From Nostoc sp. DedVER02 (lineage in GTDB: Bacteria; Cyanobacteriota; Cyanobacteriia; Cyanobacteriales; Nostocaceae): 64,000 nt of DNA. Both the position numbers and the translations under genes were made by a program. The stretch lies in the NCBI RefSeq assembly GCF_034530675.2, contig NZ_JAVRCP020000024.1:10690-74689 (forward strand), in the 5' to 3' direction. Positions within the stretch are counted from its first letter, which is position 1. Each line of letters starts with the position of its first letter. Shown here one piece after another: positions 36,161-61,839 of this stretch. The notes under the pieces are model-generated. The model saw only the letters and a list, made by a program, of their open reading frames with translations, ran no database searches and had not been told where the DNA came from.

Positions 36161-37483
36161 ATGCTAAGTAAATTAAATTTTAAAAGCTTATCACAATTAA
36201 AATCTCGTTCTGGGCTGCGGGCAATTATTGCCAATACAGGTTGGTTGTTTGCTGACCGTATTCTTCGTATGGGTGCAAGCTTGGTAGTAGGAGTATGGGT
36301 AGCACGCTATTTAGGAGTACAGCAGTATGGTCTTTTTAACTATGTTTTAGCCTTTGTTAGCTTATTTAGTCCGATTTTTACTCTCGGACTAGACGACGTA
36401 GTAATTCGCCATATTGTCCGTCAATCATCAAACAAAGAGGAAATTTTAGGAACCACTTTTTGGTTAAAGTTTCTAGGTGGAATTGCTTCTGTCTTATTAG
36501 CGGTTGGTAGTATGTTCTTCTTAGGTGAGCATGAAACACTGAAAATATGGCTAGTTGCAATTTTAGGAATGGCAGGAATTTTCAGGGCGGCTGATACCAT
36601 AGAACTGTGGTTTCAATCACAGGTGCAATCGAAATACAGTGTAATCGCTAAGAATATAGCCTTTCTGCTCAATACTATTATCAAAATAGGACTAATTTTA
36701 ACAAAAGCACCATTGTTAGCTTTTGCTTGGGTAACATTAGCAGAATTTGTCATGAGCGCAATCGGCTTGCTGATTGTTTACCAAATCAGAGGAGCTTCGA
36801 TATTGTTATGGCGTTGGAGTTTTAATGCTGCTAAAACTCTTTTAAAAGAGAGTTTACCTCTCATTTTTTCGGGGTTCGCCATCATGATTTTTATGAGAAT
36901 CGATCAGGTAATGTTAGGTCAAATGATCGGAGATAGCGAAGTTGGAATTTATTCTGCTGCTGTCAGAGTTTCTGAAATTTGGTATTTTATTCCGGCCGCC
37001 ATTGTCTCTTCAGTAGCTCCTTCAATTTACGCAGCTAAGGAAAAATCAGAAAGTCTTTATTATCAGCGTATAGGACAATTACTACGTCTCCTGACATGTA
37101 TATCTTTTGCAATTGCTCTGCCAATGACATTTTTATCTGACAAGATAATTATGCTGATGTTTGGAAGTGGATATGCAGAAGCAGGCCCAATATTAGCAGT
37201 TCATATTTGGACTTCTTTGTTTGTATTTATGGGTCTTGCGACATCACCGTGGTTTATCGCTGAAAGTTTGAACCATGTTTCTTTAGGAAAAACTTTATTT
37301 GGGGCAATACTAAATATTATTCTTAATTTCTTGTTTATTCCTAAATATGGAGGTTTTGGGGCTGCGATCGCAACCATAATATCTCAAGCTTCTGCTGCTT
37401 TTATATGCAATGCATTTGATAAAAGAACACAAAAAATATTTAACATTCAGGTGCGATCGCTACTTCTTTTTTATAAAGTTTAA
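36161..37483 (+). CDS. Wzx-type oligosaccharide flippase (MOP superfamily)
   Basis: 440 aa with about 12 TM segments and a typical polysaccharide-biosynthesis-protein layout. Confidence 0.75.
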   Translation: MLSKLNFKSLSQLKSRSGLRAIIANTGWLFADRILRMGASLVVGVWVARYLGVQQYGLFNYVLAFVSLFSPIFTLGLDDVVIRHIVRQSSNKEEILGTTFWLKFLGGIASVLLAVGSMFFLGEHETLKIWLVAILGMAGIFRAADTIELWFQSQVQSKYSVIAKNIAFLLNTIIKIGLILTKAPLLAFAWVTLAEFVMSAIGLLIVYQIRGASILLWRWSFNAAKTLLKESLPLIFSGFAIMIFMRIDQVMLGQMIGDSEVGIYSAAVRVSEIWYFIPAAIVSSVAPSIYAAKEKSESLYYQRIGQLLRLLTCISFAIALPMTFLSDKIIMLMFGSGYAEAGPILAVHIWTSLFVFMGLATSPWFIAESLNHVSLGKTLFGAILNIILNFLFIPKYGGFGAAIATIISQASAAFICNAFDKRTQKIFNIQVRSLLLFYKV

Positions 37484-47451: not shown

Positions 47452-47614
47452 TGCGGTTATGCAGGAATTTTTCTAACTACGATAAATCCATAATACCGAT
47501 AGTTTTATCGTAGTATACTCAAATTCGAGATTCAGAGGGAATGCAACCTTATAATCTATATACTTAATTATTGATATTAATAGTCAATTACTGAAGTACC
47601 AATCCAGAATCATC

Positions 47615-48214
47615 ATGAAATCTTTGCACCGTCCCGATCTCTATAGCTGGTCTAATTTCAATCCGGCAAGAAATATTGATTTCAATGGGATTGCCTGGAT
47701 TCGCCCAGATGGAAACATCTTGATTGATCCAGTAGCCCTATCAAACCATGATTGGAATCATTTGAAATCCCTCGGTGGTGTGGTTTGGATTGTGCTGACG
47801 AATTCTGAGCATGTCAGGGCAAGTAAAGAAATTGCCGATCAAACTTATGCTAAGATAGCTGGCCCTATGGCAGAAAAAGATACTTTTCCGATAGCTTGCG
47901 ATCGCTGGCTGTCTGATGGTGAAGAGTTCGTACCTGGGTTAAAAGTAATTGAACTCCAAGGCTCGAAAACTCCCGGTGAATTGGCTCTGTTACTGGAGGA
48001 GACAACTTTGATTACAGGGGATTTAGTCAGGGCACGCAAAGCCGGTAGTTTAACTATACTGCCGGATGACAAACTGCTGAATCGAGAGGAGGCTGTTGCT
48101 TCTGTTTGCAGATTGGCAGAACTGAGTCAAGTAGAAGCAGTGCTGGTAGGGGATGGTTGGCCGGTTTTTCGTGATGGACGCGATCGCTTAAAGGAACTTG
48201 TGGCGACGCTGTAA
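47615..48214 (+). CDS. MBL-fold protein with a degenerate HxHxDH motif
   Basis: Overall beta-lactamase-fold pattern, but the metal motif position reads LTNSEHV. Confidence 0.55.
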   Translation: MKSLHRPDLYSWSNFNPARNIDFNGIAWIRPDGNILIDPVALSNHDWNHLKSLGGVVWIVLTNSEHVRASKEIADQTYAKIAGPMAEKDTFPIACDRWLSDGEEFVPGLKVIELQGSKTPGELALLLEETTLITGDLVRARKAGSLTILPDDKLLNREEAVASVCRLAELSQVEAVLVGDGWPVFRDGRDRLKELVATL

Positions 48215-48255
48215 ATAGTTGGGGGCGATGCCTATGTTCAGGGCTAGCCCTACAC
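48180..48255 (+). repeat. Direct repeat A: native 3' end of the MBL gene plus a palindromic terminator
   Basis: gcgatcgcttaaaggaacttgtggcgacgctgtaaatagttggg...agggctagccct. Matches 55783-55856. Confidence 0.85.
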
Positions 48256-48262
48256 TCAATTT

Positions 48263-51200
48263 TTACTGACTGGTGATATCATCGCAGAGGTAGCGATCGT
48301 TTTTCATATTAGGGTTATTTTTCAGATAACCAGATGCCAACTTACAGGCACGCTTGAGTAAATCATCTAAATTATCATTAAGATATATTTTTCCCTCATT
48401 GCTATTAAGCTCAATTGTCTTATTGGTATTAAGGTTAAATCGATCGCCTAAGAAAGAACTGATGGGATAGAGTAAGTAAGGATCTTTCGTAAACCAACTA
48501 TTCAGAAAATATAGACCTGTATTAGAATCAGAACCAACAGCCAGCATTCTGTTGTAATTATCAAAACTTAAGGTATAACTACTATAATCAGTCTTTAATG
48601 GTTCAACTTTTCCATTATCTAAATTCCACAATTTAGCCGAAGATCCACTAACAAAGGCAATCTTTTTATCATCAGCTTGGAAGCGTATATTTGTAATTTT
48701 ATCAGGATCAGAAATGGTTGGTTTTTGTAATTTACCATCAAGATTCCAGAGTCTTATAATTTTGTCATCACTAGCGGAAGCAATAATTTTTCCATCATGA
48801 GTGAAACTCACGCTATTGACTTTATCACTCTGTTTTATAATCGGTTTAAGCAATTTACCATTTCTATTCCAAAACCTTACTGTTTTGTCGTCACTAGCAG
48901 AAGCGATGATTTTTTTATTAGGGCTGAATACAACACTATTAACCCAATCAGTATGACCCGATAAGGTTGCTAGCGGCTTGCCTTTTAAATTCCAGAGTTT
49001 TAAACTATCATCTTTACTAACGAAAGCAACTGTTTTTTTATTAAAATTAAACCTAATCAAAGAATCTATATTATTACATAAAACATTGACATGACCTTTA
49101 ATAGATTTTAACTCTTGAAAATTGGCATTATCTTCAATACTCCAAAACTTCATAATATACTTAGAACGATAAATATCATTCGACAAATAAGTTTTGCAGC
49201 TAGTAGCACCAATGATTTTTCCATCAGCACTAAAGCTAACCTTATCAATGCTAATATCATCATTTGGTTTATTACCAAATCCTGAAAGTGGTTTGATAAA
49301 ATTACCGTTGCTGTTATAGATATTCACAGTGTTATCAGCACTGGCAGAAGCAATGTATTTGTTATCAGAACTAAACGCAACATCATTAACACCTTTAATG
49401 TGCTTTTGTAAAGTCAGAGGTTCATAGTTGGATTTTTTAAGCAAAAGCTGGTTTATATCCCAAATCTTTATAGTATTATCAGCACTGCTAGTTACAATTT
49501 TTGTACCATCAGGGCTAAAATCTACTTTCGTGATTGTGTCATTATGTCCTTTGAGTGTTGGGCGTGGTTCTCCCTCAACAGTCCATAGGTTGACAGTATA
49601 ATTCTTGTTAATAGAAGTAATGTACTTGCCATTAGGACTAAATTTAGCGCTGATCATGATATAGTTCTCAAGAGATTGAGGTGGTTGGCTATTGCTGATA
49701 TCCCAAATTTTTATCTCACCACTATTAGCGCTAACTGACATGATCTTTTTGTCATTTGGACTAAACTCTACGCTTTGTACCTTGGAATTATGCCCAATCA
49801 ATGGCTTAAGGGGAGTACCATCACTTTTATAGAGTTTGACTAAATTGTCATCGCCGAGAGCAAGCATCTTGCTATCATGACTAAATATAACACTTGTGAC
49901 TTTATCACTATCTACTTTTAAGGCTTGAATTAAACTGCGATCGCGGCTATTCCAAAGTTGCACTTTATTGTCATGACTGATAGTAGCTATTATCTGACTA
50001 TTAGGGCTAAAGCTCACATTGGTAACTTGTTTTGTGTCTCCCTTTAAATGTCCTATAAATTTTCCGTCACTACTGCGCCAGAGTCTAACAAAATTATCTG
50101 CACTGGCACCAGCAACCAAATTACCATCAGGGCTAAAGTCAATGGTTGTGATCTTATTGGTGCTACCTTTTAAAGTAATTTCCTTGTTGGTATCTAGTTT
50201 CCAGAGCTTTAAGATATCGTCAGAGCTTCCAGTTGCAAGGGTTTGATTATCTGGACTAAAGCTAAGAATTGAACTATCTCCTGGGATAGTTTTGATGTGA
50301 GTGCCATTACGGTTTTGAAGTTCTATACTATTGTCAGAACTACCAAGAGGGACTGTTTGACCATCAAAACTAAACTCTATTTTCCTATTTGTATCTTCAT
50401 ATCTATCGGTTCTCTGGAATGAGGATAATTTATTGTTCTCAATATCCCAAATTTTCACAACTCCATCTTTACTAGCTGATGCAAGTAGCTTGTTATCAGG
50501 ACTAAAGCTTGTATAAGTAATACTATCATCATGTTTAAAATTATTGTAAATAGAACATTGAGCTTGAAACATTCTAGTTCTGTATAAACTTTTCTTATCT
50601 TCACTCTCCTGGAATATGACCGATTGGTTATCAAAACTATTATTTATAAAATCTCCCAATCCAAATGAATTCTTACAACCATTCTCAACACTTTTGATGA
50701 GGTGTGGTTTATCACCAGTAGACCAAACTCTTAGATTTCCCTGTTTATTAAACAAGCTAATAGCGTCACCATTGTTATTGAAATTCATGGTAAATGTGCC
50801 AGAATCATAAATCTCAATAGGCTTATTTTCAATTTTTTTTGGTGTAAGTTTCCAAAGTTTAACAGTGTCATACCGTCCCCCTGTAGCAACTGTCTTGTTG
50901 TCAGGACTAAAACTTACAATTATGTTTTTGTCATTAAATCTTTGTGGTAAATTTAAGAGTTTACCATCTTGCCAACTCCAAATTTTAACTGTTTTATTCT
51001 TAGTGGTAGTGGCTAGTAGTTTATCGTTAGGGCTAAATGTAATAAAGCCTAGACCATCTTTATCAATTTTCAAAATTTTTATTGGTTTAAATTCAGCAGT
51101 ACTCCAGTTTTTACCTTCAGGAATATTCCAGATTTTTGCATTACCATCTTGGCTGACGGTAGCTAACATTTTTCCATCCGAGTTGAAGCTAATAGATGTT

Positions 51201-54200
51201 ACACTTTTTTTGTGAGCTGACCAGCTTCTTTCTTGACCATCAGAAATATTCAATATTTTGACTTTGCCATCTTCACTTGCCGTAGCTAACATTTTGCTAT
51301 CTTGGCTAAAACTAAGGACTGTAATTGCTTTATTATCGTACCCTTCTACACGGTTGATTTCTTTAATTTTCTGAATTGCATTACCCAGATTTGAAATAAC
51401 CTTTAGCCGAGTTTCAGGTATCACCCCTATTGATAAAAACTTCAGTTTTTTACCTACTTTAATAGCTGATACTAGCTCTTCAAGCCCTATGTCATCTTTT
51501 GAAGAAATATCTGATGTCAGGGAAGTGTTGATGTAAGCTGCTGTAACTCCTACTGCGATTACACTTATTGCACTTATTAATCCTATTAATGTAACAGTTT
51601 GTTTGCGTGCAGTTCTTAGCTGTTGTGTCAAAACCTGATTGAGTTTGGCTTCGGTGAGTTTTCGTTGTTCTTTTTCTTTCTCCAATTCAGCAATTAATCG
51701 GGCTGATTGTTGTTCACGAACAAATGGTACTAGATAGTCATGAACCAATTGATATCTGTCAGCCGGAAATCCTGGCACTTGAAATACTAAGCCTGATTTC
51801 ACTAGGATTTTCAAAATTAAATCTAATCTTGCAGGCTCTAATGCTAAATCTGCTTCTAATTCAGCACGATTTTTCAGAGGACGAGTATTATTTTCATCAG
51901 TTAACAAATACAAAACTAGCTTGGCGAACTGTTCGTTATTGTTACCACAATCTTTAACTACTTCTTCTAAGAAGCGCCCTACCAATTTTTCTTTAGGGCC
52001 TTGTTCTTGGTACTGAATCAAAGTTGTAATTTTCTCAGTTTGCAGTTGCGCTCCTACAACTTGTAATTCAATGGGGCGAATTTCGTTGAAATCTCTAGCT
52101 AAATCTCGTACTAGCTCATCAATTAGCGGTGGCTCTAGGTAAAACTGAGAACTTTCAGTTAAGCTTTGAATTACAGAGCGAGCATCTTCCGGCGAAAAGT
52201 TCCCTAAGTAATAAAGAATTTTTTTATCTAATATGTTGTTATCAATTGCATCCAAATGGGTTAAGCGATTACACTCTAGTAAATAATGGAGATAATCTTC
52301 TCTAAGAGACAGAATAATTTTTACATAAGGAATATTAAGACAATCTCGGATAAATTCAAAAAACGGTCTCCTTTTATCTTGGTCTTTATAAGCAAAAAAG
52401 AACTCTTCAAACTGGTCAAAAATCAGAACAGTTAACAAACCTTTCTCTATATTTTTATTCAACTCTTCTACAAAACCTGCCATTGAGTCTAAAAACAGAG
52501 GAAAGCTTAAGCCTCTAACTTCTTCTAGTGATTCTACTAAGCGACTTCCTAAAAGTTTTGTCCAATCTGTATAAACTTGCAAAAGAACAGGCACAACATC
52601 ACGAGCATCTATGGCTCTTTGTTTTAAAGCTGGTAATAATCCTGCCTGAACCAGGGAACTTTTACCTACTCCTGATTGACCATAAATGACCGTCAATTTG
52701 TGGTCATCACGACTGATTCTTTCAATCAATCGATTCACATCTTGCATTCTTCCAGAAGCAGCAATCTCTTGGGTTACTGCTGCTTTTGGATCGGCCACTG
52801 CAAGTCCAGGATTAATAACTTGGAGTTTAGATTGTAAGCGTCCTGCACCTACAAAAGCTCGTAATCCATACTGTTGCTCAATTGAACGTTGCTCTAGTTT
52901 AACTTGGAATGCTTCTAAATAATTACCTTGGTCAAAGTAGAGCGATCGCAGTTTCGCCAAAATGCGAATATATAGCAGTGGATCGTGTTGAGGATTACTT
53001 TCAGAATGAGCGGTTTCTAAATTAGCGATCGCCTCTGGAACCTGATTAATATTTTGTTGAGCTTCTGCTAATAAAAGTAAGTATAAATTTTTATAAAATT
53101 TGTGTTCCCACTCACAATTAATTATTTCTTCTGAGGAAATATTGGCATTCGTTTGTAATGCTAGTTCTGCATATTCTTTAGCCTCTTCCCATTGAGATTT
53201 TTTCAGCAATACCTCAGCCATGAATCCATAACTGTAGGCAAGTCTGATTGGTTCAGGGTAAGTTTGGTGTAGCTCAATAGCTACTAACGCAACTTTTTCT
53301 AACTCATCGTACGCTTCTAATCTGGTTAAAACTTCACCCCAAGCGTTAATAAATTTTGCTGCTAAATCTGGGTATTTTTGCTGCCTAAAACCCTCAACAC
53401 ATTTTTGAAAGTAATCTTTAGCTTTTAGGCAAGCTTCGTAATATTCAGAACGATGCAAAATCGCATACTGTTCCCACCAAAAACCAAGATGCCAAAGTAA
53501 ACATCCGTAACGTTTCAAATCATCAGATGATAGATTTTGGTTATTTTTGACTTTCTTTTCCCAAACAGCTATACTTTGATCATAATAATTTTTCGCTTCA
53601 GATTTATGTCCATTAGCATCTGCTTCCCGACCTAGCAAAAATTGTAAGCTTGCCTCTAGTTCAGGCTCTAATTTTTCTATAGATATTTGTAAATCTCTAA
53701 CAGCAGAATCAATTTCCCCTAAATGGAGAATACCAAGGTCAAGATTTAAGTAAGCATTATCCACAAACTTTCCAGCACCGACATTAATAATTGCTGCAAA
53801 TAGGGAATTAACAATTTGGTGCAGATTGTTGATTAACTGATTCGTAGCAATTTTAAACTTAATTGAGTTACCTGTCCAACTCTTAAAGTCAGGCATTAAT
53901 TGAATCAATTTTTGGAAGGTTTGATCATTTACCCAAATAACTATGGGAAACTGGAAATTCTTACGAAACTCCTCTCTTACCTGATTTGTAGAAATTAAAA
54001 GTTGGTCAATTGCATCTACTAATTCCAAATCAAATATCATCAAAGCTTGAGGTAGTTGATTTCCCAGGTTAGCTTCAATTGTTGTATAAAGTGTTTTGAT
54101 AGATTTTGACAGATGTAGCTCTCGAATCTCAACTTGACATTCTTGCTTGATCTGCTGCACCATCTGGTCTCGCAAACTGCAATAGTTACAACGTGCCAAA

Positions 54201-54304
54201 ATTAACGCAAAGTGTCCCTGAGAATTCGTAATTGAGCGGATTAGTTTTTTCAGGGAGCGTTCATTGTAGACAGCTACATCTTCAGGTTGATAAGAGTCAC
54301 TCAT
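48263..54304 (-). CDS. Giant STAND-type NTPase (2013 aa): degenerate NTPase-like N-domain, TPR-like repeats, active P-loop NTPase, winged-helix-like region, TM helix, ~1000-aa WD40 array
   Basis: Walker A YGQSGVGKSSLVQAGLLP (nt ~52655-52681), Walker B-like LTVLIFDQFEEFF. TM helix TVTLIGLISAISVIAVGVTAAYI (nt 51533-51598). Many SFSPD(G/N)K...(L/I)W WD40 units. The C-terminal LDDLLKRACKLASGYLKNNP tail is typical of cyanobacterial NTPase-WD40 proteins. Confidence 0.8.
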   Translation of the reverse strand: MSDSYQPEDVAVYNERSLKKLIRSITNSQGHFALILARCNYCSLRDQMVQQIKQECQVEIRELHLSKSIKTLYTTIEANLGNQLPQALMIFDLELVDAIDQLLISTNQVREEFRKNFQFPIVIWVNDQTFQKLIQLMPDFKSWTGNSIKFKIATNQLINNLHQIVNSLFAAIINVGAGKFVDNAYLNLDLGILHLGEIDSAVRDLQISIEKLEPELEASLQFLLGREADANGHKSEAKNYYDQSIAVWEKKVKNNQNLSSDDLKRYGCLLWHLGFWWEQYAILHRSEYYEACLKAKDYFQKCVEGFRQQKYPDLAAKFINAWGEVLTRLEAYDELEKVALVAIELHQTYPEPIRLAYSYGFMAEVLLKKSQWEEAKEYAELALQTNANISSEEIINCEWEHKFYKNLYLLLLAEAQQNINQVPEAIANLETAHSESNPQHDPLLYIRILAKLRSLYFDQGNYLEAFQVKLEQRSIEQQYGLRAFVGAGRLQSKLQVINPGLAVADPKAAVTQEIAASGRMQDVNRLIERISRDDHKLTVIYGQSGVGKSSLVQAGLLPALKQRAIDARDVVPVLLQVYTDWTKLLGSRLVESLEEVRGLSFPLFLDSMAGFVEELNKNIEKGLLTVLIFDQFEEFFFAYKDQDKRRPFFEFIRDCLNIPYVKIILSLREDYLHYLLECNRLTHLDAIDNNILDKKILYYLGNFSPEDARSVIQSLTESSQFYLEPPLIDELVRDLARDFNEIRPIELQVVGAQLQTEKITTLIQYQEQGPKEKLVGRFLEEVVKDCGNNNEQFAKLVLYLLTDENNTRPLKNRAELEADLALEPARLDLILKILVKSGLVFQVPGFPADRYQLVHDYLVPFVREQQSARLIAELEKEKEQRKLTEAKLNQVLTQQLRTARKQTVTLIGLISAISVIAVGVTAAYINTSLTSDISSKDDIGLEELVSAIKVGKKLKFLSIGVIPETRLKVISNLGNAIQKIKEINRVEGYDNKAITVLSFSQDSKMLATASEDGKVKILNISDGQERSWSAHKKSVTSISFNSDGKMLATVSQDGNAKIWNIPEGKNWSTAEFKPIKILKIDKDGLGFITFSPNDKLLATTTKNKTVKIWSWQDGKLLNLPQRFNDKNIIVSFSPDNKTVATGGRYDTVKLWKLTPKKIENKPIEIYDSGTFTMNFNNNGDAISLFNKQGNLRVWSTGDKPHLIKSVENGCKNSFGLGDFINNSFDNQSVIFQESEDKKSLYRTRMFQAQCSIYNNFKHDDSITYTSFSPDNKLLASASKDGVVKIWDIENNKLSSFQRTDRYEDTNRKIEFSFDGQTVPLGSSDNSIELQNRNGTHIKTIPGDSSILSFSPDNQTLATGSSDDILKLWKLDTNKEITLKGSTNKITTIDFSPDGNLVAGASADNFVRLWRSSDGKFIGHLKGDTKQVTNVSFSPNSQIIATISHDNKVQLWNSRDRSLIQALKVDSDKVTSVIFSHDSKMLALGDDNLVKLYKSDGTPLKPLIGHNSKVQSVEFSPNDKKIMSVSANSGEIKIWDISNSQPPQSLENYIMISAKFSPNGKYITSINKNYTVNLWTVEGEPRPTLKGHNDTITKVDFSPDGTKIVTSSADNTIKIWDINQLLLKKSNYEPLTLQKHIKGVNDVAFSSDNKYIASASADNTVNIYNSNGNFIKPLSGFGNKPNDDISIDKVSFSADGKIIGATSCKTYLSNDIYRSKYIMKFWSIEDNANFQELKSIKGHVNVLCNNIDSLIRFNFNKKTVAFVSKDDSLKLWNLKGKPLATLSGHTDWVNSVVFSPNKKIIASASDDKTVRFWNRNGKLLKPIIKQSDKVNSVSFTHDGKIIASASDDKIIRLWNLDGKLQKPTISDPDKITNIRFQADDKKIAFVSGSSAKLWNLDNGKVEPLKTDYSSYTLSFDNYNRMLAVGSDSNTGLYFLNSWFTKDPYLLYPISSFLGDRFNLNTNKTIELNSNEGKIYLNDNLDDLLKRACKLASGYLKNNPNMKNDRYLCDDITSQ

Positions 54305-55605
54305 AGTTTAAATTTCTTCGATTCTGCGATCGCTGGGTTAATATCAAACCAGCGTCCATCAACATCCCGGTATTCAAATAAAAACATACTTCGTAAAAGA
54401 GTTTGGTATTCGTCCTCTCCTTTGACATTATCCCTCTGTTGCAAAACCTGTAGCAGTAGCGCCCACTCGCTATCACTAATTGCTGATACCAAATCATCCC
54501 GATACTCGCGGATGACCATTTCCAGACAGTTCCGCCCAATAGGGGGATCACCTTCTTGCAAGCAACTGTAAAGTAAAACTAACAGATTTCGCACATGTCC
54601 ACCACTAACTCGGCAAAGACGATCTAAGGTTTCATCTGAATCAAAAACTTCATTAATATGACTCAAACGTTGCGTTTCTCCTAGCCAGGGAAACGCCCGT
54701 GCTAAAACCATTTGTTGTAGTAGCTTCATACCTTCTAGGTTGTAGGTTCCCTCACGATTCTTGACTGTCACCATTGGTAATACTACAGGTTTGATCCCGA
54801 AACGATTAGTAAGAGTGCTTAATTCATTGGAGAAAATTAACACTAGAGGAATGGTATAAACCAAATGACAATTGAGTTTTTTTAACTGCTCACCCCGATC
54901 AATGAATAGATATTCTGGTTGAGAACGACCAGAGGCTTTAGGAGAGATATCGACGCGATCAAGATTATCAATAATTACCACTAATCCTTGATAACCTTGT
55001 AGCTTCAATTGCTCTTTAGCACGCTCTAGTACCTGTTGATTAATAGCTTCTAATATGCCACTAGTCCGAGGTTCTAGGTATTGGCGCAACTGGCTCCGCA
55101 GCCTGGGACTATCTTTAGTCTTGGCAGTGACTTTACCAATTCCCAAAGGTAATGAAAATTCAAATTCTGGAACTACTGGTGTTTGTAAAAAATCCGCAAT
55201 TTCATTAAACAAATCGACAAAATAGCTTGGTCTAAGTTTGATTTTAACCTTTTCTAAACTGGCGCTAACTTGACGAGTTATTGCTAACAAAATATCGCTG
55301 ACATCCACATCTGCCATATCTAAATCAGCACTGGACTCAAAGTAGACTACATGAAAGCCTTGCTTTTCTAATTCATCTTTGAGTCGAAATAGTTCTGTAG
55401 ATTTACCACAGCCAATATGTCCAGTGAATAATTGGCAGGTTGACTCATCTGGTTGATTAGCAATCGTCCGCCGTAAACGTTGAATTACATTGCCTCCACG
55501 CACTGGCGAGAAGTCAATATAGTACTGTTGGTCTTCTTTATTCTCAATTTTTAAAGTCTTACTGGGATTACAGGCATTAAAAAACTTAATAGGGTCTAAA
55601 GCCAT
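54301..55605 (-). CDS. P-loop ATPase (STAND/AAA-like), translationally coupled to the giant NTPase-WD40 gene
   Basis: Walker A TGHIGCGKSTELFRL, Walker B-like LVVIIDNLDRVD, helical C-terminal half. Its stop overlaps the downstream start (ATGA at 54301-54304). Confidence 0.65.
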   Translation of the reverse strand: MALDPIKFFNACNPSKTLKIENKEDQQYYIDFSPVRGGNVIQRLRRTIANQPDESTCQLFTGHIGCGKSTELFRLKDELEKQGFHVVYFESSADLDMADVDVSDILLAITRQVSASLEKVKIKLRPSYFVDLFNEIADFLQTPVVPEFEFSLPLGIGKVTAKTKDSPRLRSQLRQYLEPRTSGILEAINQQVLERAKEQLKLQGYQGLVVIIDNLDRVDISPKASGRSQPEYLFIDRGEQLKKLNCHLVYTIPLVLIFSNELSTLTNRFGIKPVVLPMVTVKNREGTYNLEGMKLLQQMVLARAFPWLGETQRLSHINEVFDSDETLDRLCRVSGGHVRNLLVLLYSCLQEGDPPIGRNCLEMVIREYRDDLVSAISDSEWALLLQVLQQRDNVKGEDEYQTLLRSMFLFEYRDVDGRWFDINPAIAESKKFKL

Positions 55606-55782
55606 TACGGTTTCCTCTTACTACTTAAAAAATAAAAGTATAAAATATTACTTAATGGTATTAACTAGAGTTTCAGTATATACTAATACATGCAGATAAA
55701 AAATCTTTGTAAAGTAGAATCTCACTTAACTTAAGCAAAAGTTGCTACTAAAAAGATAGTTGTCCTATCTTTAGCAATACAG

Positions 55783-55856
55783 GCGATCGCTTAAAGGAAC
55801 TTGTAGCAACGCTTTAAATGGTTGGGTAGTACAGCTAGCTGTGCTACCCTACAGGA
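55783..55856 (+). repeat. Direct repeat B: orphan copy of the MBL-gene 3' end plus a palindromic terminator
   Basis: gcgatcgcttaaaggaacttgtagcaacgctttaaatggttggg...ggtagtacagctagctgtgctacc. Still encodes GDRLKELVATL-stop. Confidence 0.85.
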
Positions 55857-56012
55857 AATTGCGGTTCAGATAAATGAAAAAGGCTGTAATAAAAATTGTA
55901 ATGTGAATATTACAAACTGGTGCAATTTAAAACAGCTAATAACAGCGCCTGAATTTGACTCTGTTTAATTAATTATCAGCAGCAAAGCGCGATTCTCCTG
56001 TGGAAAGGCTGC

Positions 56013-57254
56013 GTGATCGCGTGCAGAATATTGACAGTGTTGCCTAAAATTATGGATAATTCCCCAGTGGTCGCTCAAGCAGATGCATCCTTACCAAATT
56101 ACACTCAGGAAAATATACATCTAGTGGAGTCAAACAAAAAGATCGGAACTGATTTTGACTCTCGCATGATGCTGCGGTGTTTGGAACTTGCTCGCCGCGC
56201 TTTAGGACGGACTTCGCCAAATCCGTTAGTGGGAGCGGTGATTGTCAAGGATGGCGAAATTGTCGGCGAAGGGTTTCATCCTCGTGCAGGTGAGCCTCAT
56301 GCAGAAGTGTTTGCTTTAAAAGCAGCAGGCGATCGTTCTCGTGGTGCAACAATCTATGTGTCACTTGAACCTTGTAATCACTACGGGCGAACTCCCCCTT
56401 GTTCAGAAGGATTGATCCAAGCTGGAGTAGCAAAAGTGGTAGTGGGTATGGTTGATCCCAATCCACTGGTAGCTGGAGGTGGTATTGCTCGTTTACGGGC
56501 GGCGGGGATCGAAGTGTTGGTAGGAGTAGAAGAATCAGCTTGTCGTCAGCTAAATGAAGCTTTTGTGCATCGCATTCTCTACAAGCGACCTTTAGGAATT
56601 TTAAAATATGCCATGACTTTAGACGGCAAAATTGCTACTACCTCTGGTCATAGCGCCTGGGTGACAAGCCAAGAGGCCCGCAGTGAAGTACATCAACTGC
56701 GGGCGGGTTGCGATGCAATAATTGTCGGGGGTAATACAGTGCGACAAGATAATCCTTATTTAACTAGTCATCATCTGGAGGCACATAATCCCCTGCGGGT
56801 GGTGATGAGTCGCAATCTCAACTTACCGGAAAGTGCCCATCTGTGGCAAACTGCGGATGCTCCTACTTTGGTGTTGACACAGAAGGGTGCTAACCCCGAT
56901 TTTCAAGGACTGTTGCGAAAACTTGGGGTGGAAGTCGTGGAATTAACATCACTTACACCAGATCAGGCAATGGTGTATTTGTATGAGCAGGGTTTTTGTA
57001 GCGTGTTGTGGGAATGTGGCGGTACTTTAGCTGCTAGTGCGATCGCTCAAGGAGCAGTGCAAAAAGTTTTGGCATTTATTGCCCCAAAAATCATTGGTGG
57101 TAGCATTGCTCCCACACCTGTGGGCGATTTAGGTTTTACTACCATGACTGAGGCATTGTCTCTAGAACAGGTTCGTTGGCGTGTAGTTGGTTCTGACTGC
57201 TTAGTGGAAGGTTATTTCCCGAAAAAGCCAATAGTCAATAGTAATAACACTTGA
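56013..57254 (+). CDS. ribD: Bifunctional riboflavin biosynthesis protein RibD (deaminase/reductase)
   Basis: Deaminase zinc motifs HAEV and PCNHYGRTPPC, and a reductase domain (KYAMTLDGKIAT). ATG 56052 is a likelier start than GTG 56013. Confidence 0.85.
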   Translation: MIACRILTVLPKIMDNSPVVAQADASLPNYTQENIHLVESNKKIGTDFDSRMMLRCLELARRALGRTSPNPLVGAVIVKDGEIVGEGFHPRAGEPHAEVFALKAAGDRSRGATIYVSLEPCNHYGRTPPCSEGLIQAGVAKVVVGMVDPNPLVAGGGIARLRAAGIEVLVGVEESACRQLNEAFVHRILYKRPLGILKYAMTLDGKIATTSGHSAWVTSQEARSEVHQLRAGCDAIIVGGNTVRQDNPYLTSHHLEAHNPLRVVMSRNLNLPESAHLWQTADAPTLVLTQKGANPDFQGLLRKLGVEVVELTSLTPDQAMVYLYEQGFCSVLWECGGTLAASAIAQGAVQKVLAFIAPKIIGGSIAPTPVGDLGFTTMTEALSLEQVRWRVVGSDCLVEGYFPKKPIVNSNNT

Positions 57255-57283
57255 CTATCAATCAGTTTATAGTGATTTCTATA

Positions 57284-57592
57284 TCATGAACACTGACGTT
57301 CATGAGCAATATCACGTATAAGGGCTAGCCGAGATTGAATGTAGTGGCACAGATAATCAGTTTCGTTAGGATCTAACAAAACTTGTGTTTCGGTTTGTTT
57401 CACTAACCACTGCACCAAGCTAGTATCATCCAGTTGTAAGAGGAGCTTGGCTTGGGCGGTTTCAACCACTGACCAAAGCTGACGCATGATTGTAGGAGTC
57501 ATCAGACCTCGATTGAATAATGAGCTATTAGCTGTCTTTAGATTACACAATTCCGATCGCAATTTACGACATGAATGTAGAAGCTGAGACAA
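57284..57592 (-). CDS. Hypothetical protein (102 aa)
   Basis: ORF only. No secure family. Confidence 0.3.
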   Translation of the reverse strand: MSQLLHSCRKLRSELCNLKTANSSLFNRGLMTPTIMRQLWSVVETAQAKLLLQLDDTSLVQWLVKQTETQVLLDPNETDYLCHYIQSRLALIRDIAHERQCS

Positions 57593-57958
57593 GTATTATT
57601 AAAAACTTAATAATGCTATTTATAACTTTATGAAGATTAAGAATTTGAAACTCAGTTTTGAAAGTCTAATTTATATTTGGGAATTTGGTATAGCAAATAC
57701 AGATTTTTCTGTGTATTGAGTCTACATCCTTAATTAAGCTCTTAGCTCGACTTTATTCCAAATTAAGAACTCTGCTTTCTTTATCTGGCAAAAATTCTGG
57801 TTTTTTTGCAAATACTTTTTCCATGCCTCCTATTCCCCCTCAAGTCTAAAAACTAAAACTAGGGTACTGCGATGTTTTCAGCGTCGAGTTTTGGGTTTCT
57901 TAAAAATAGATAAAGTCGAGCTTAAAGGTTGTTTGAAAAGTTGAAAAATGTATAATTT

Positions 57959-58040
57959 GTCATTCTGAATGGAACGAATGATCTAGAGTTTGAGCAATTA
58001 CTGGGAGATCCTTCACTAGCTGCGCTACATTCAGTATGAC
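57959..58040 (+). repeat. MITE-like 82-bp element with 13-bp terminal inverted repeats
   Basis: gtcattctgaatg ... cattcagtatgac. Nested in a second inverted repeat, gtttgaaaagt (57931) / acttttcaaac (58040). Confidence 0.55.
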
Positions 58041-58054
58041 TTTTCAAACATCCT

Positions 58055-58831
58055 CTAATTCCTTATATCCCACATATCTTGGTAAATTGGATGGATTTCA
58101 CGCACTAATTTCCATAAACGACGTCTTGCTCGGTAGGCATACCAAACTAAAATGACTAAAGTCTGCCAACTCATCAATATACAAATATTTTGAGTTCCTA
58201 GTGCAATAGCGATAACTAGAAACCCAAATAAAAAGACACGAAGCATTTCATGGGGTAGTCCTTCTAACCACTTACTTTTAGTATAACGATAAACAAAATA
58301 GGGTATCCAGACACTAACCACTTGTGCTACAAACAACATTGACCCAATAATATTGGTTTTTGTCACTACAAGAAAACCAAATGACTTGTAAGTTTGCAAT
58401 ACAAAGTAAAGCCAAGTTCTTGTCTGCTTATCAATATAGTTGTAAACAAAGAAACTTAGGCGTACAACCAGGAGTAAACCTATCCATAATGCCATTTTAA
58501 CTAAAGCTGTTTTTAAATCTAGGGTGCTAACAATGGAAGCCAAAGTAACATCACTTGAGACAACTTTAGCCAATTCCAAAATAATTAGCCCAGGGACAGC
58601 AAAAATTACAGCCCAAATCCAAGCCTGCCATACATTGATTCGGTTCTTGTACTGTTGGTAAGTTGCTGATAGGACTGGTTTTTTCTCAAACCGTTCAGCA
58701 ACTATGTCATTTTCTACATAGCCTAGTTCATAGATGCACCAGAAAGAAAGTAATACAAAAAACATACCAGTGGCATGAATAAGAGGGAGCATCCACTTTT
58801 GGCAGAAACACTCAAATAGCAAGTAAACCAT
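58055..58831 (-). CDS. Multi-pass membrane protein, N-terminally truncated by the IS (the first ~16 codons are IS-derived)
   Basis: About 7 hydrophobic segments. Codons for MVYLLFECFCQKWMLP lie inside the IS left end and its inverted repeat. Native sequence begins near 58784. Confidence 0.4.
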   Translation of the reverse strand: MVYLLFECFCQKWMLPLIHATGMFFVLLSFWCIYELGYVENDIVAERFEKKPVLSATYQQYKNRINVWQAWIWAVIFAVPGLIILELAKVVSSDVTLASIVSTLDLKTALVKMALWIGLLLVVRLSFFVYNYIDKQTRTWLYFVLQTYKSFGFLVVTKTNIIGSMLFVAQVVSVWIPYFVYRYTKSKWLEGLPHEMLRVFLFGFLVIAIALGTQNICILMSWQTLVILVWYAYRARRRLWKLVREIHPIYQDMWDIRN

Positions 58832-59967
58832 TCAGATAAGCACAACGAACAGAAAGGATTTGGTTGACACTCCCAACATTCCACTGTGCGCCAGAAATTT
58901 TCATCCTAGCTCCAATCTGTTTAATAGCAGACTCGACTGCACCAGAACCAATAGAACAAAGTTGTTCAGCTTGGTAATAAGTATAGTTGACAATACGGGA
59001 GCAATGTTTTTCGAGATAAGCGATGAAGTTCTTAGCTTGTTTGCCTCGGCAATTATGAAATAAAGCCTTGGCTTCTTCAACTTGACCCTGCCATAAAAGA
59101 GTTTCAGCTGCTTTGAGTCGCTTTAAAGAACCACCCACTTTGTAAAGATTTTCCTTGAGATGATACCAATCTAAAATTTCCCAACGCTCAAAATTCTCAC
59201 TTTTACCAAACTCTTTGACGAGATTCCATACACCATCATGACCATCTCCTAAGCAGACTAACGGGTTAACTAGACGCTGGCTATTGATATAATCAATTAA
59301 TGATTGGTTGTCATCAAAAAACGCACCATAGTAAATCCCTTGCAGACGAACGGTTTTATAGTCTCGCCAGTGACAGCCTGCTTTCGGTTTACCCCTAAGT
59401 CGGACTTTTCCTCCATCTACGCTAACTTCTGAAACTGATTGTTTAGCAAGTGGTAGTTGAAAATCTTGTGACATGACTAGTTGTTGTTGTGTTGAGTGAC
59501 CAACTTTTACTCCTGTCAATGCCTCAATCTCGATTTCTGCTTTTTGGTAGGATTCGTTAGCTGATAACCTCAAACAGCACTTTTGAAGTAATGGACAAAA
59601 GCTTCCTTCTTGGCTTTAAACCTAGTCTAATAAGCTGTTTGGCTTTTAATTTCAGTTCCCCTACTAGGCTTTTTATTTTCCTGGTTTTACCTACTTTTGT
59701 TCCAGTTTTTTGTTCGATAAAAAAAGGGCTATTTCTGGGCTGACTAATTCTAATACTTGACTGCGAACTGTTTTTTCTATGCCTTCGAGGTCTGCCAGCT
59801 TACTTTTATCTGCTTCTTCATACAGCAGTGTTGACAATTCTTGTAAGCAGGCTTTGATCCGTTCTTGTTTCTCTTGGTTCATTGTCAGCGATCGCACAGG
59901 GTTCTTTCCCTTTACATTTTCCCATAAATGGTAAATCTTCCAAAACTGGATGCTCCCCATGTGTTCA
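58785..59967 (-). mobile_element. ISKra4-family insertion sequence (~1.18 kb) with terminal inverted repeats
   Basis: IRs are gggagcatccacttttgg (58785-58802) and ccaaaactggatgctcccc (59949-59967), matching at 17 of the 18 aligned positions. Internal transposase motifs include LSANESYQKAEIEIEALTG, GGKVRLRG, LGDGHDGVWN and ILDWYHLKENL. Confidence 0.7.
58812..59882 (-). pseudogene. ISKra4-family transposase, reading frame broken at least twice
   Basis: Three frame segments: 59691-59882 (MNQEKQERIKA...), ~59578-59690 (VGKTRKIKSLVGELKLKAKQ...) and 58812-59573. Confidence 0.6.
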
Positions 59968-60901
59968 ACTTCAAAACAGATCAGGAAAAGCGAAACAAGA
60001 CATCATATTAGAGAAATGCTATAGAAATTCTCGCCCACTCCTAACTTCTGCACATGCTTTGGGTTTTGGAATATATAGAAATGAAGGATTAATCCAAATG
60101 TTTGATGATGCAGGATTATGGAGAGATATTGGTTACGAAGTAGAAGAAGGAAACTTAGATGAAGGAAAGCCTGTAAAGCTTAGTAGAACTAGCGATACTA
60201 GTCCAATATTCCTTGAATCTCACTCAACTATTGATGACTTAATTATATTTAAGTCATTTAATAATAGCCACGAACAAAATGAATGGTTAGTCAATGAAAT
60301 AGAGAAGAACATTAGAGAAGATGAATTAAAGTATGATGACATAATGATTATTCATTCTAACCCGTTTACAACTAAAGATGCCGTTGGAAGCTCTAGGGCT
60401 TTACTCTTTGAAAGAAAGATTAATTCTAACCTAGCTGGAGTAACGAATTCCCGTGATGAATTTTTTAGTGAAGAAGCAGTCACTTTCACGGGTATCTATA
60501 GAGCAAAGGGAAATGAAGCTGCGATGATATATGTTATAAATGCCCATTAATGCTTTTCTGGTACAGAGCTTTCTCAAAAAAGAAATATCTTGTTTACTGC
60601 CATGACAAGAAGTAAAGCTTGGTTAAGAGTATTAGGCTATGGTGAAAATATGAGGGGTTTGGTGAAAGAATTTGAAGAAGTTAGAAAAAGAAACTTTGTT
60701 CTTGAATTTACCTATCCTACAGAAAAAGAACGAATAAGAATGAATGTTATCAATAGAGATATGAGTCCTAAAGAGCGTGAGCGTAGAAGTCAGAACCAAA
60801 GAAATTTAAAAGATATTGTTGAAGATTTAGACAATGGTGTTATACACAAAGAAGATTTGCCACAAGAACTAATAGAAAAATTGAAAAATTACCTACTTTG
60901 A
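59968..60901 (+). pseudogene. SF1 (UvrD/AAA_30-like) helicase, C-terminal half only, with an in-frame TAA at 60548-60550
   Basis: CYRNSRP (motif IV-like), VTFTGIYRAKGNEAAMIYVINA, then after the stop, in the same frame, NILFTAMTRSKAWLRVLG (motif VI-like). The N-terminal ATPase half is missing at the IS boundary. Confidence 0.6.
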
Positions 60902-60902
60902 A

Positions 60903-61562
60903 ATGACTAGTCATCAAGAAATTTATAAAGAAATTAATACCATAACTCAAAAACTAATAGAAGTTAGTTTGTGTGACCAACAAAATTTTCCGTCATCTAC
61001 ATCTATTGGTAAAGATAGTTATGAGATTGCATATTCTGGTATGCAGGATCTCTCAATAGCACTGAAAAATATTGATTACAAGGACATATATCATGAACTA
61101 AACAGAGGTAAAAACTACAACTTCAAAATGATTGATGGTGCGTTAATACAACTTTTGTATACTTATAAAAAGTCCGAGCTAATTTCACATAGGCTTGCTT
61201 TTTTACCATCACCATTTTTAGAAGTTTTCCAGAATGAGCCTACAATTTATGAAGAAGACGAAATATATGCAGATATAATAGCAAAAAATATATTACCAGT
61301 ACCAATTAGGTTCGATTATGATCCAGACAATCATAAAGAATTAGATCACCCCAAATGCCATCTAACCTTGGGACAATTTAAAAATTGTAGAATACCTGTT
61401 TGTTCCCCAATCGCACCGAGTACTTTCATATCCTTTATTATTCGTAGTTTTTACAATACTGCTTTTAGAAAATTTACAGATGATCTTACTTTTTCAAGCA
61501 ACCTTTTCGACAAAACGATAGCTGATGCAGAGAAGAAAGTATTGCACATAGCTATTTATTAA
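60903..61562 (+). CDS. Hypothetical protein, DUF2290-like helicase partner (assignment from memory)
   Basis: 219 aa, starting 1 nt after the helicase stop. HPKCHLTLGQFKNCRIPV resembles the conserved core I recall for DUF2290. Confidence 0.35.
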   Translation: MTSHQEIYKEINTITQKLIEVSLCDQQNFPSSTSIGKDSYEIAYSGMQDLSIALKNIDYKDIYHELNRGKNYNFKMIDGALIQLLYTYKKSELISHRLAFLPSPFLEVFQNEPTIYEEDEIYADIIAKNILPVPIRFDYDPDNHKELDHPKCHLTLGQFKNCRIPVCSPIAPSTFISFIIRSFYNTAFRKFTDDLTFSSNLFDKTIADAEKKVLHIAIY

Positions 61563-61590
61563 TTTTTTTATATAATGCTTCTTGCTTGAC

Positions 61591-61839
61591 CTACTTGTAC
61601 ACTCTTTTAGAGTTGATATCTGAAGTGGGCGATCGCTTTTCTTGACCAGGCTTCTGACGCTTTGCCATTGTTGCAAAAGGCAGGAAGCAGTAAAAACATT
61701 CACCTTGTACCCAATCTGCGGGAATCGGGAAAGGAGTTTCGCAGTTAGTACATTTGCTTAACAGACGTAATTCATGGCGATCGCACTCATGCTCGATCAA
61801 CAAGAGACACTTCCTTGTGATCGCTGTCATCTGGCTCAT
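61591..61839 (-). pseudogene. TniQ-family C-terminal zinc-ribbon remnant (Tn7-like / CAST-type transposon relic)
   Basis: ECDRHELRLLSKCTNCETPFPIPADWVQGECFYCFLPFATMAKRQKP has the C-x2-H...C-x2-C...C-x2-C layout of small cyanobacterial TniQ proteins. A stop lies immediately upstream and the N-terminal two thirds are absent. Confidence 0.45.

Follow-up and report, generated by a model that had tools for sequence, protein, structure and literature searches.

Between the MBL-fold gene and ribD of Nostoc sp. DedVER02 lies a 7.5 kb island with two genes on the minus strand, and on the far side of the island the last 66 nt of the MBL gene occur a second time. The features of the locus are listed below. 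Coordinates are those of the window, that is, the whole stretch of 64,000 nt that was analysed.

47615-48214, plus strand: MBL-fold gene, Lactamase_B_5, 199 aa (Pfam E=3e-117, full length)
48149-48214, plus strand: copy A, the last 66 nt of the MBL gene, with a HIP1 site at 48180-48187
48215-48262, plus strand: A-type 3' flank, TAAATAGTTGGGGGCGATGCCTATGTTCAGGGCTAGCCCTACAC, an alternative imperfect hairpin in place of the native one
48263-54304, minus strand: cargo gene 1, 2013 aa, TPR repeats, nSTAND1 NTPase and many WD40 repeats (Pfam)
54301-55605, minus strand: cargo gene 2, 434 aa, P-loop NTPase (AAA_22 / NPHP3_N / KAP-like; Pfam AAA_22 E=3.9e-6)
55680-55751, plus strand: remnant of the earlier cargo, the ~20-nt 3' end of doxX, stop codon included (55680-55699), then the doxX 3' spacer (aligns downstream of doxX in loci L075, L066 and L041)
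55752-55817, plus strand: copy B, an orphan of the last 66 nt of MBL, from -65 to the stop (blastn with the intact MBL 3' end of L007)
55821-55852, no strand assigned: native MBL 3' hairpin, GGGTAGTACAGCTAGCTGTGCTACCC at 55824-55849 (fold prediction and covariation)
55853-56051, plus strand: native MBL-ribD spacer (colinear with the unoccupied loci L007, L008 and L015)
56052-57254, plus strand: ribD, deaminase/reductase (Pfam RibD_C E=2e-51)

The start of ribD was placed at the conserved ATG (56052), where the orthologues begin MDNSPVV; the ORF caller had given a GTG at 56013. Copy B is located 200 nt upstream of ribD.

The locus was compared with 80 Nostoc loci retrieved with the MBL protein of the window, and tail copies were searched for in the 1.48 Mb of Nostoc DNA that these loci span. 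Counts of 3' flanks refer to 79 species. The loci nearest to the window's MBL gene belong to Nostoc species (88-97% nucleotide identity). All comparisons are between species, and gains and losses are unpolarised by a species tree. The Pfam scan covered 28 ORFs of the window, including all those of at least 180 aa from position 36161 to the window end; 17 ORFs of this size elsewhere in the window were left out of it.

A sequence-only reading of the window had taken 48180-48255 (copy A) as the real end of the MBL gene and 55783-55856 (copy B) as an orphan of it. Both assignments hold. Copy A closes the Lactamase_B_5 gene at 47615-48214 and is conserved in 80/80 genomes. Copy B lacks a start codon, has an in-frame TAA at 55749-55751 and has no coding role. 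The 22-mer GCGATCGCTTAAAGGAACTTGT is identical in the two copies and occurs exactly twice in the 64 kb with up to three mismatches allowed (0 expected). The three differences within the DRLKELVATL codons (GTG/GTA, GCG/GCA and CTG/CTT) are all synonymous, as that reading had stated.

Its description of the repeat needs correction in other respects. The homology does not start exactly at HIP1 but extends 31 nt further left, to 55752. The intact MBL 3' end of L007 matched the window at 55755-55877 in blastn (85% over 123 nt, E=6.5e-35), with the match beginning 62 nt before the MBL stop, and a repeat search aligned 48152-48223 with 55755-55826 (79% over 72 nt). Divergence is synonymous-only just in the last 11 codons. 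The additional 31 nt (55752-55782) have 14/31 mismatches to copy A, and these changes are non-synonymous, because the stretch encodes K-DSCPIFSNTG where copy A has G-DGWPVFRDGR. This left half of copy B is decayed and AT-enriched; from HIP1 (55783) to the TAA (55815-55817) the orphan is near the consensus. The similarity was also thought to run past the stop into a hairpin in both copies, but the post-stop hairpins are two different sequences, and the similarity there amounts to TAAAT.GTTGGG only, ending at 48223 and 55826.

A dispersed repeat family, which the same reading had named as the competing explanation, is excluded, as the copies found in the 80 loci are confined to MBL ends or to the orphan position. 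A HIP1-containing repeat, a small dispersed repeat and a MITE were all rejected, with two copies in the window at up to three mismatches and none at unrelated loci. A diversity-generating retroelement (VR/TR) was likewise rejected: there is no reverse transcriptase in the 28 window ORFs, copy A is invariant and the mismatches are not adenine-specific, with only 8/14 of those between copies A and B falling on adenines of copy B.

The hairpin that follows copy B has a predicted fold of -20 kcal/mol (z=-2.95). Across its 37 distinct versions, 4/11 pairs show changes on both sides that preserve the pair; the hairpin is structurally maintained through compensatory changes. The predicted fold of the A-type flank is non-significant (z=-1.2). 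The scan for promoters and terminators found no intrinsic terminator at either hairpin and weak promoter-like sites only, of which one on the minus strand (55664-55637) could serve the cassette operon. An Rfam scan of 47500-57500 (E<=1) returned just one spurious miRNA match.

In 26/79 species a functional MBL gene has the B-type hairpin (GGGTAGCACAGCTAGCTGTGCTACCC) directly after its stop, and then the spacer known from the window between copy B and ribD. Because the B-type end directly follows MBL in these species, copy B and its hairpin are the native MBL 3' end in its native position, and the unoccupied site corresponds to the left part of copy A joined to the right part of copy B. The 3' flank is A-like in 7/79 species. 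The A-type flank (GGGGCGATGCCTA...AGGGCTAGCCCTAC) is found 3' of functional MBL genes in nine other loci (L003, L014, L042, L009, L026, L027, L032, L043, L063), independent of the content beyond it. Since both types follow functional MBL genes in other species, they represent two allelic forms. The earlier proposal that the two copies come from two functional alleles is reasonable to this extent; the synonymous-only divergence on which it had been based is restricted to the last 11 codons. Two of the three synonymous differences (GTA and GCA) are polymorphisms of functional alleles, e.g. in L007 and L015, and CTT is the sole orphan-specific difference, common to the window, L014 and L042.

Two further motifs at the edges of the repeat were considered. 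The sequence GGGGCGAT at the A-side junction was at first a candidate HIP1 half-site breakpoint and was dropped: in A-type loci it belongs to the alternative hairpin and in ndh2-type loci it precedes hypervariable filler. About half of the MBL genes in the 80 loci have the E. coli Chi octamer GCTGGTGG directly 5' of the position at which the orphans begin; the window carries GCTGGTAG at this place (48142-48149). A role of the octamer at the orphan edge was set aside as probably coincidental because the site varies synonymously.

The island itself is a STAND cassette. The product of gene 1 has a P-loop NTPase core fused to a repeat-type sensor region, which places it among STAND proteins: nSTAND1 was detected at residues 518-859 (Pfam E=2.7e-32) and WD40 with E=8.5e-116, with propellers at approximately residues 980-1925. 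The N-terminal TPR_12 match (E=2.3e-6) is under its curated cut-off, and a search for an effector or adaptor domain in the N-terminal 533 aa gave weak TPR matches only. Genes 1 and 2 overlap by 4 nt and so probably form one operon. Both are present at the same site in L003, L014 and L042, where gene 1 is 80-88% identical and gene 2 is 93% identical to the window. PADLOC gave no convincing defence-system match for the island, with repeat-level or marginal matches only, and megablast of the island against a plasmid collection gave no match.

The C-terminal WD40 part of gene 1 (window 48263-49300), which is rich in internal repeats (families D1-D5), is 72-83% identical between species, versus 87-94% for the middle of the gene and 92-94% for the NTPase gene. 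Going by these alignments, the figures suggest that the sensor repeats of gene 1 may be diversifying. In genomes with the arrangement MBL-msrB (L047, L052, L068, L069) a homologue of the 434-aa NTPase (68-71% nucleotide identity) is found 7-10 kb downstream on the plus strand, in the opposite orientation.

The island is not the first cargo of this site. The doxX 3' spacer in the window (55700-55751) ends in the motif ACTTAAGCAAAAGTTGCTAC at 55729-55748. Orphan tails were found in 18 other loci, and 15 copies in 14 loci have their left edge at -61 to -65. Most of these are preceded by a conserved spacer ending in ACTTAAGCAAAAGTTGCTAC; the exceptions are L028, in which an internal deletion fuses doxX-internal sequence to the orphan, and the second orphan of L066, which follows filler. 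In L016, L019, L030, L038, L041, L060, L066, L074, L075 and L078 the orphan is located 3' of ndh2-doxX, and its spacer is directly downstream of the DoxX gene, itself usually 3' of the NDH-2 gene (Pfam Pyr_redox_2 E=1.6e-45, DoxX E=4.4e-10). The window, L014 and L003 bear the STAND cassette yet keep the doxX 3' end and the spacer. The doxX relic at 55680-55699 sets the right boundary of the present island at ~55680, ~70-100 nt to the left of copy B. On the left, window 48215-48228 retains ...GGGGGCGAT, which is common to ndh2-type loci. Because the doxX end, the spacer and GGGGGCGAT are retained, the STAND pair replaced ndh2-doxX within a pre-existing frame of copies A and B.

The tail repeat had been interpreted as the mark of this island's acquisition, or its attachment site. 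This is contradicted by the other species, in which the same-edge orphan with its spacer follows NDH-2 and DoxX: copy B is not a junction made by the arrival of this island. It is an old rearrangement scar, common to many Nostoc species, at a gene-swapping hotspot. In relatives the orphan is decaying through K-to-N/H changes, an in-frame stop (L041) and indels (L060, L030, L003), and it is truncated in L003, L009, L030, L038 and L063. The loci L012, L076 and L061 contain ndh2-doxX without an orphan and are either ancestral or deletion derivatives. The spacer motif ACTTAAGCAAAAGTTGCTAC may be a decayed MBL hairpin; its predicted resemblance to the hairpin is significant in the window (12/2000 shuffles) and in L060 (0/2000), and not in L066 or L003 (2/5 versions).

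In four species (L009, L027, L032, L063) the STAND cassette has left one and the same deletion scar, CCCTACACTCAA joined to ATAGTACTGTTGG, ~40-90 nt beyond the MBL stop. The scar connects the A-type flank to a piece of the 5' part of the 434-aa gene (window 48254-48260 to 55514-55530); the deleted stretch is equivalent to window ~48260-55518, with a TCAAT microhomology. The cassette was therefore once more widespread at the site, and the locus turns over by deletion at microhomology. In L026 just the 3' end of the giant STAND gene is retained. The STAND cassette or a scar of it was detected in at least 6 different upstream gene contexts. Since each of these contexts also has relatives with other contents, the spacer region turns over independently of its flanks.

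At least 10 alternative contents occupy the MBL-ribD (or MBL-msrB) intergenic position, including two conflict-system classes. Other cargo types are GNAT, a radical-SAM/ferritin-like cluster, a fucosyltransferase, a Schlafen-like protein and AIM24. L028 carries, between MBL and ndh2 (L028:11301-18411), EAD1-trypsin, a small membrane-like ORF, EAD1-VMAP, a MoxR-like AAA ATPase and an FGE-sulfatase/lectin protein. Conflict-system classes in multicellular bacteria, such as the nSTAND/WD40 pair and the VMAP/EAD1/MoxR system found here, are described in PMC7159879. Fragments of the five-gene VMAP/EAD1 system of L028 are kept in L018.

L066 contains three MBL tails (L066:12932-13230): the functional one, orphan B after doxX, and orphan C ~200 nt further on, which follows HIP1-flanked filler. 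The left edges of the two orphans are at -65 (B) and -61 (C). With two orphans so alike in their edge, a preferred or recurring breakpoint seems likelier than one accident in the past. In L013 a remnant of the L066-type filler and edge is preserved. In another group (L001, L017, L035, L039, L002) the palindromic filler AGAAGGGGAAAGG...CCTTTCCCTCT has taken the place of the native hairpin, 100-350 nt past the MBL stop; in L002 it is expanded with GGCAGGGGA heptamer-like repeats. The filler looks like a small mobile or repeat element. Outside the MBL-ribD interval, the genes past the small ORF that follows ribD (window 57600-61600) are specific to the window among the ribD-context loci. Among them are a DUF2290 protein (60903-61562) and, at 58812-59573, a weak match to UPF0236 (transposase-like); this may be a second variable region.

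Copy B is probably a pseudogene fragment resting on the native hairpin and spacer, produced long ago by microhomology-mediated duplication or by an illegitimate join, after which the cargo turned over without a recombinase. The unit of MBL tail and hairpin would have been duplicated long before the compared Nostoc species diverged, or once with later spread, either by local tandem duplication or by a homology-facilitated illegitimate join. Either event would have made use of a short similarity: GGGGATGGTTGG, located 65 nt ahead of the MBL stop, resembles GGAGATTGTGG, which closely follows the hairpin. In the tandem route the tail and hairpin would have been duplicated and the cargo then inserted between the stop and the first hairpin; in the other the incoming DNA would already have carried ndh2-doxX. 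Both routes predict the same junction. The orphan left edge, ...GCTAC(C/T)CA followed by GGGGATGG, is compatible with a join of ACAGGAGATTGTGG (after the hairpin) and GGGGGATGGTTGG (in MBL), and the resemblance of the spacer motif to a decayed hairpin is significant in 2/5 versions.

The first cargo would have been the NDH-2 and DoxX genes, with tail A, still complete, on the upstream side and tail B, truncated, on the downstream side. In the window lineage its interior later gave way to the STAND-NTPase/WD40 pair, a step shown by the parts that survived the swap: the 3' end of doxX with its spacer, copy B and, on the left, ~15 nt of the earlier flank. Turnover may have proceeded by ordinary recombination in the conserved flanks together with microhomology- or HIP1-associated deletions. 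The right half of copy B and the hairpin stay conserved, probably because the hairpin is functional, and the left half decays.

One observation is not predicted by uniform neutral decay, namely the 42% versus 5% step in divergence exactly at HIP1 in the nSTAND lineage. Measured against the MBL consensus, the orphan of the window has 13/31 mismatches left of HIP1 and 2/44 from HIP1 on (Fisher p=9e-5), and in the lineage as a whole (window, L014, L042) there are 10-13/31 on the left and 2-3/44 on the right. HIP1 may mark an old crossover. A second junction of interest is found in L027 (3500-3560), in which the orphan is cut exactly at HIP1 and continues at the HIP1 site a short way upstream of ribD (GGACGCGATCGC joined to GTGCAGAATATT), a HIP1-to-HIP1 deletion of ~240 nt that includes the hairpin; HIP1 occupies 0.7% of positions. 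Taken together, the step and the deletion are suggestive, not decisive, with regard to a role of HIP1.

If HIP1 were a Chi-like crossover site that promotes or limits recombination, the DNA to the left of 55783 would have a history separate from that to the right. Preprints have attributed to HIP1 a Chi-like enhancement of homologous integration (bioRxiv 10.1101/2024.09.10.611283) and have proposed for it a role in DNA uptake (10.64898/2026.06.24.733823), which favours such a crossover along with the step and the L027 deletion. We nevertheless find it doubtful. The step is absent from the other ten orphans, and because HIP1 makes up 8 of the ~75 tail positions, a chance coincidence of the step with it would be expected at ~10-20%. 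The two sides do not have discordant histories either, since L003 and L014 are the closest relatives for ribD as well as for the cassette. The left half is also the faster one within the lineage (7/62 versus 3/88 differences), and its changes in the nSTAND-lineage orphan are mostly G:C to A:T. Lying upstream of the divergent cassette operon, it may have been adapted as AT-rich promoter DNA; its faster change agrees with this, or with constraint on the right half and hairpin, as well as with a crossover.

The recurrence of a constant-edge frame of A and B around different cargos would also be expected if cassettes moved by RecA-dependent, Campbell-type recombination, in which A and B recombine to excise a circle with the cargo and one tail. 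A single homologous crossover would then re-integrate it in another genome, with the MBL tail as portable attachment homology, a model close to that of the sequence-only reading. Precise A-by-B excision would leave behind loci like the 26 unoccupied ones, the three tails of L066 with the same left edge could stem from serial integrations, and at least 6 upstream contexts, each with cassette-less relatives, hold the nSTAND cassette or its scar. In those same contexts, however, the cassette-less relatives show deletion scars and filler rather than precise excision. The relics of the earlier cargo inside the frame (the doxX end and GGGGGCGAT) favour internal replacement over exchange of the whole cassette, and the repeats are only ~66-110 nt long and partly decayed. 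Movement of this kind is unlikely here.

Conservation of the right half might instead mean that copy B is kept as a functional element with its hairpin, e.g. a small RNA, a terminator or insulator module, or a regulatory site. The right half has 2-6/44 mismatches, against a mean of 4.9 for A copies, and the hairpin shows compensatory changes. In the window the decayed left half moreover forms a new imperfect hairpin (55741-55778, TTGCTA..AAGATAG / CTATCTT..TAGCAA), with paired changes from GATGG/CCGTC to GATAG/CTATC, although the fold is non-significant (z=-1.3) and less perfect in L014. A function of copy B is improbable, as the orphan is truncated or deleted without replacement in L003, L009, L030, L038 and L063 and absent in L012 and L076, and the Rfam scan gave no match for it.

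No integrase, transposase or reverse transcriptase was detected by Pfam in both island genes, 26 neighbouring ORFs or nine other cargo types, in agreement with the sequence-only reading, which had reported no integrase. The direct repeats are not located exactly at the two boundaries of the island, as att sites would be: the right boundary is at ~55680 and copy B starts at 55752, with remnants of the earlier cargo in between. Tn7-like and CRISPR-associated transposons insert 60-66 bp beyond their target. Such an element, including a CRISPR-associated transposon with a homing spacer, was rejected, since native sequence resumes right at copy B and not at that distance, and transposition and cas genes are absent. 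Classical site-specific integration into the MBL 3' end with a replacement tail (attL/attR) and later loss of the integrase is barely credible: a direct repeat of a gene 3' end that restores the reading frame, and an unoccupied site that combines the left of A with the right of B, agree with it, but none of about ten cargo variants contains an integrase or recombinase, the original cargo is housekeeping-like (NDH-2, DoxX), the repeat is ~70-100 nt outside the right boundary of the present island, and the island has no megablast match in the plasmid collection.

Integrases that target gene 3' ends (tRNA, tmRNA, protein-coding) leave attL/attR duplications. The Nostoc locus resembles these in that a direct repeat of a gene 3' end flanks the inserted DNA, the functional gene end is intact and the unoccupied site can be rebuilt from both copies. 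It differs in that no variant has a recombinase, the same-edge repeat is common to unrelated cargos, the boundary of the present island is inside the frame and not at the repeat, and only one side of the repeat loses identity. Gene-fragment scars are left in natural transformation by homology-facilitated illegitimate recombination or microhomology-mediated duplication. Copy B is like them in that a conserved gene anchors one side, the other junction is compatible with a join at a few similar bases (GGRGATKGT), and foreign DNA adjoins a truncated duplicate of the anchor. Unlike such scars, the one in Nostoc is old and common to several species, and the same edge recurs in L066. Core-gene hotspots that collect defence and conflict systems are comparable in the variety of contents (at least 10, including the nSTAND/WD40 pair and VMAP/EAD1/MoxR), but the Nostoc site also holds metabolic cargos (NDH-2/DoxX, GNAT, the radical-SAM cluster) and mobile-element genes are absent. 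HIP1-bounded deletions in cyanobacteria include that of the smt locus of Synechococcus. The L027 deletion exactly between two HIP1 sites and the divergence step at HIP1 in the window's orphan are alike in this respect; in contrast, these are single observations at one locus, and most junctions (the cassette scar, the orphan left edge) are off HIP1.

The most fitting label for copy B is that of a relic gene fragment, at a hotspot of recombination and turnover where STAND and VMAP conflict systems, among others, have accumulated; the state of the locus is one of ordinary decay at such a hotspot. A more far-reaching interpretation, to which we give little credence, is that the last ~66 nt of MBL together with HIP1 and the hairpin form a portable attachment region that needs no recombinase, with HIP1 setting the crossover point and with a preferred breakpoint at -61 to -65. 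Host homologous recombination would then excise and re-insert cassettes, the STAND and VMAP systems included. If true, gene exchange guided by HIP1 would have a natural example here.

The main value of these results is corrective: what appeared to be the attachment site of an island is an older scar, and the adjoining island was swapped in later. The natural junctions found here, the HIP1-to-HIP1 deletion and the divergence step, bear on the influence of HIP1 on recombination, as anecdotal evidence from a single locus. The locus is a compact and well-sampled case of how an intergenic hotspot in Nostoc turns over without mobile-element genes.
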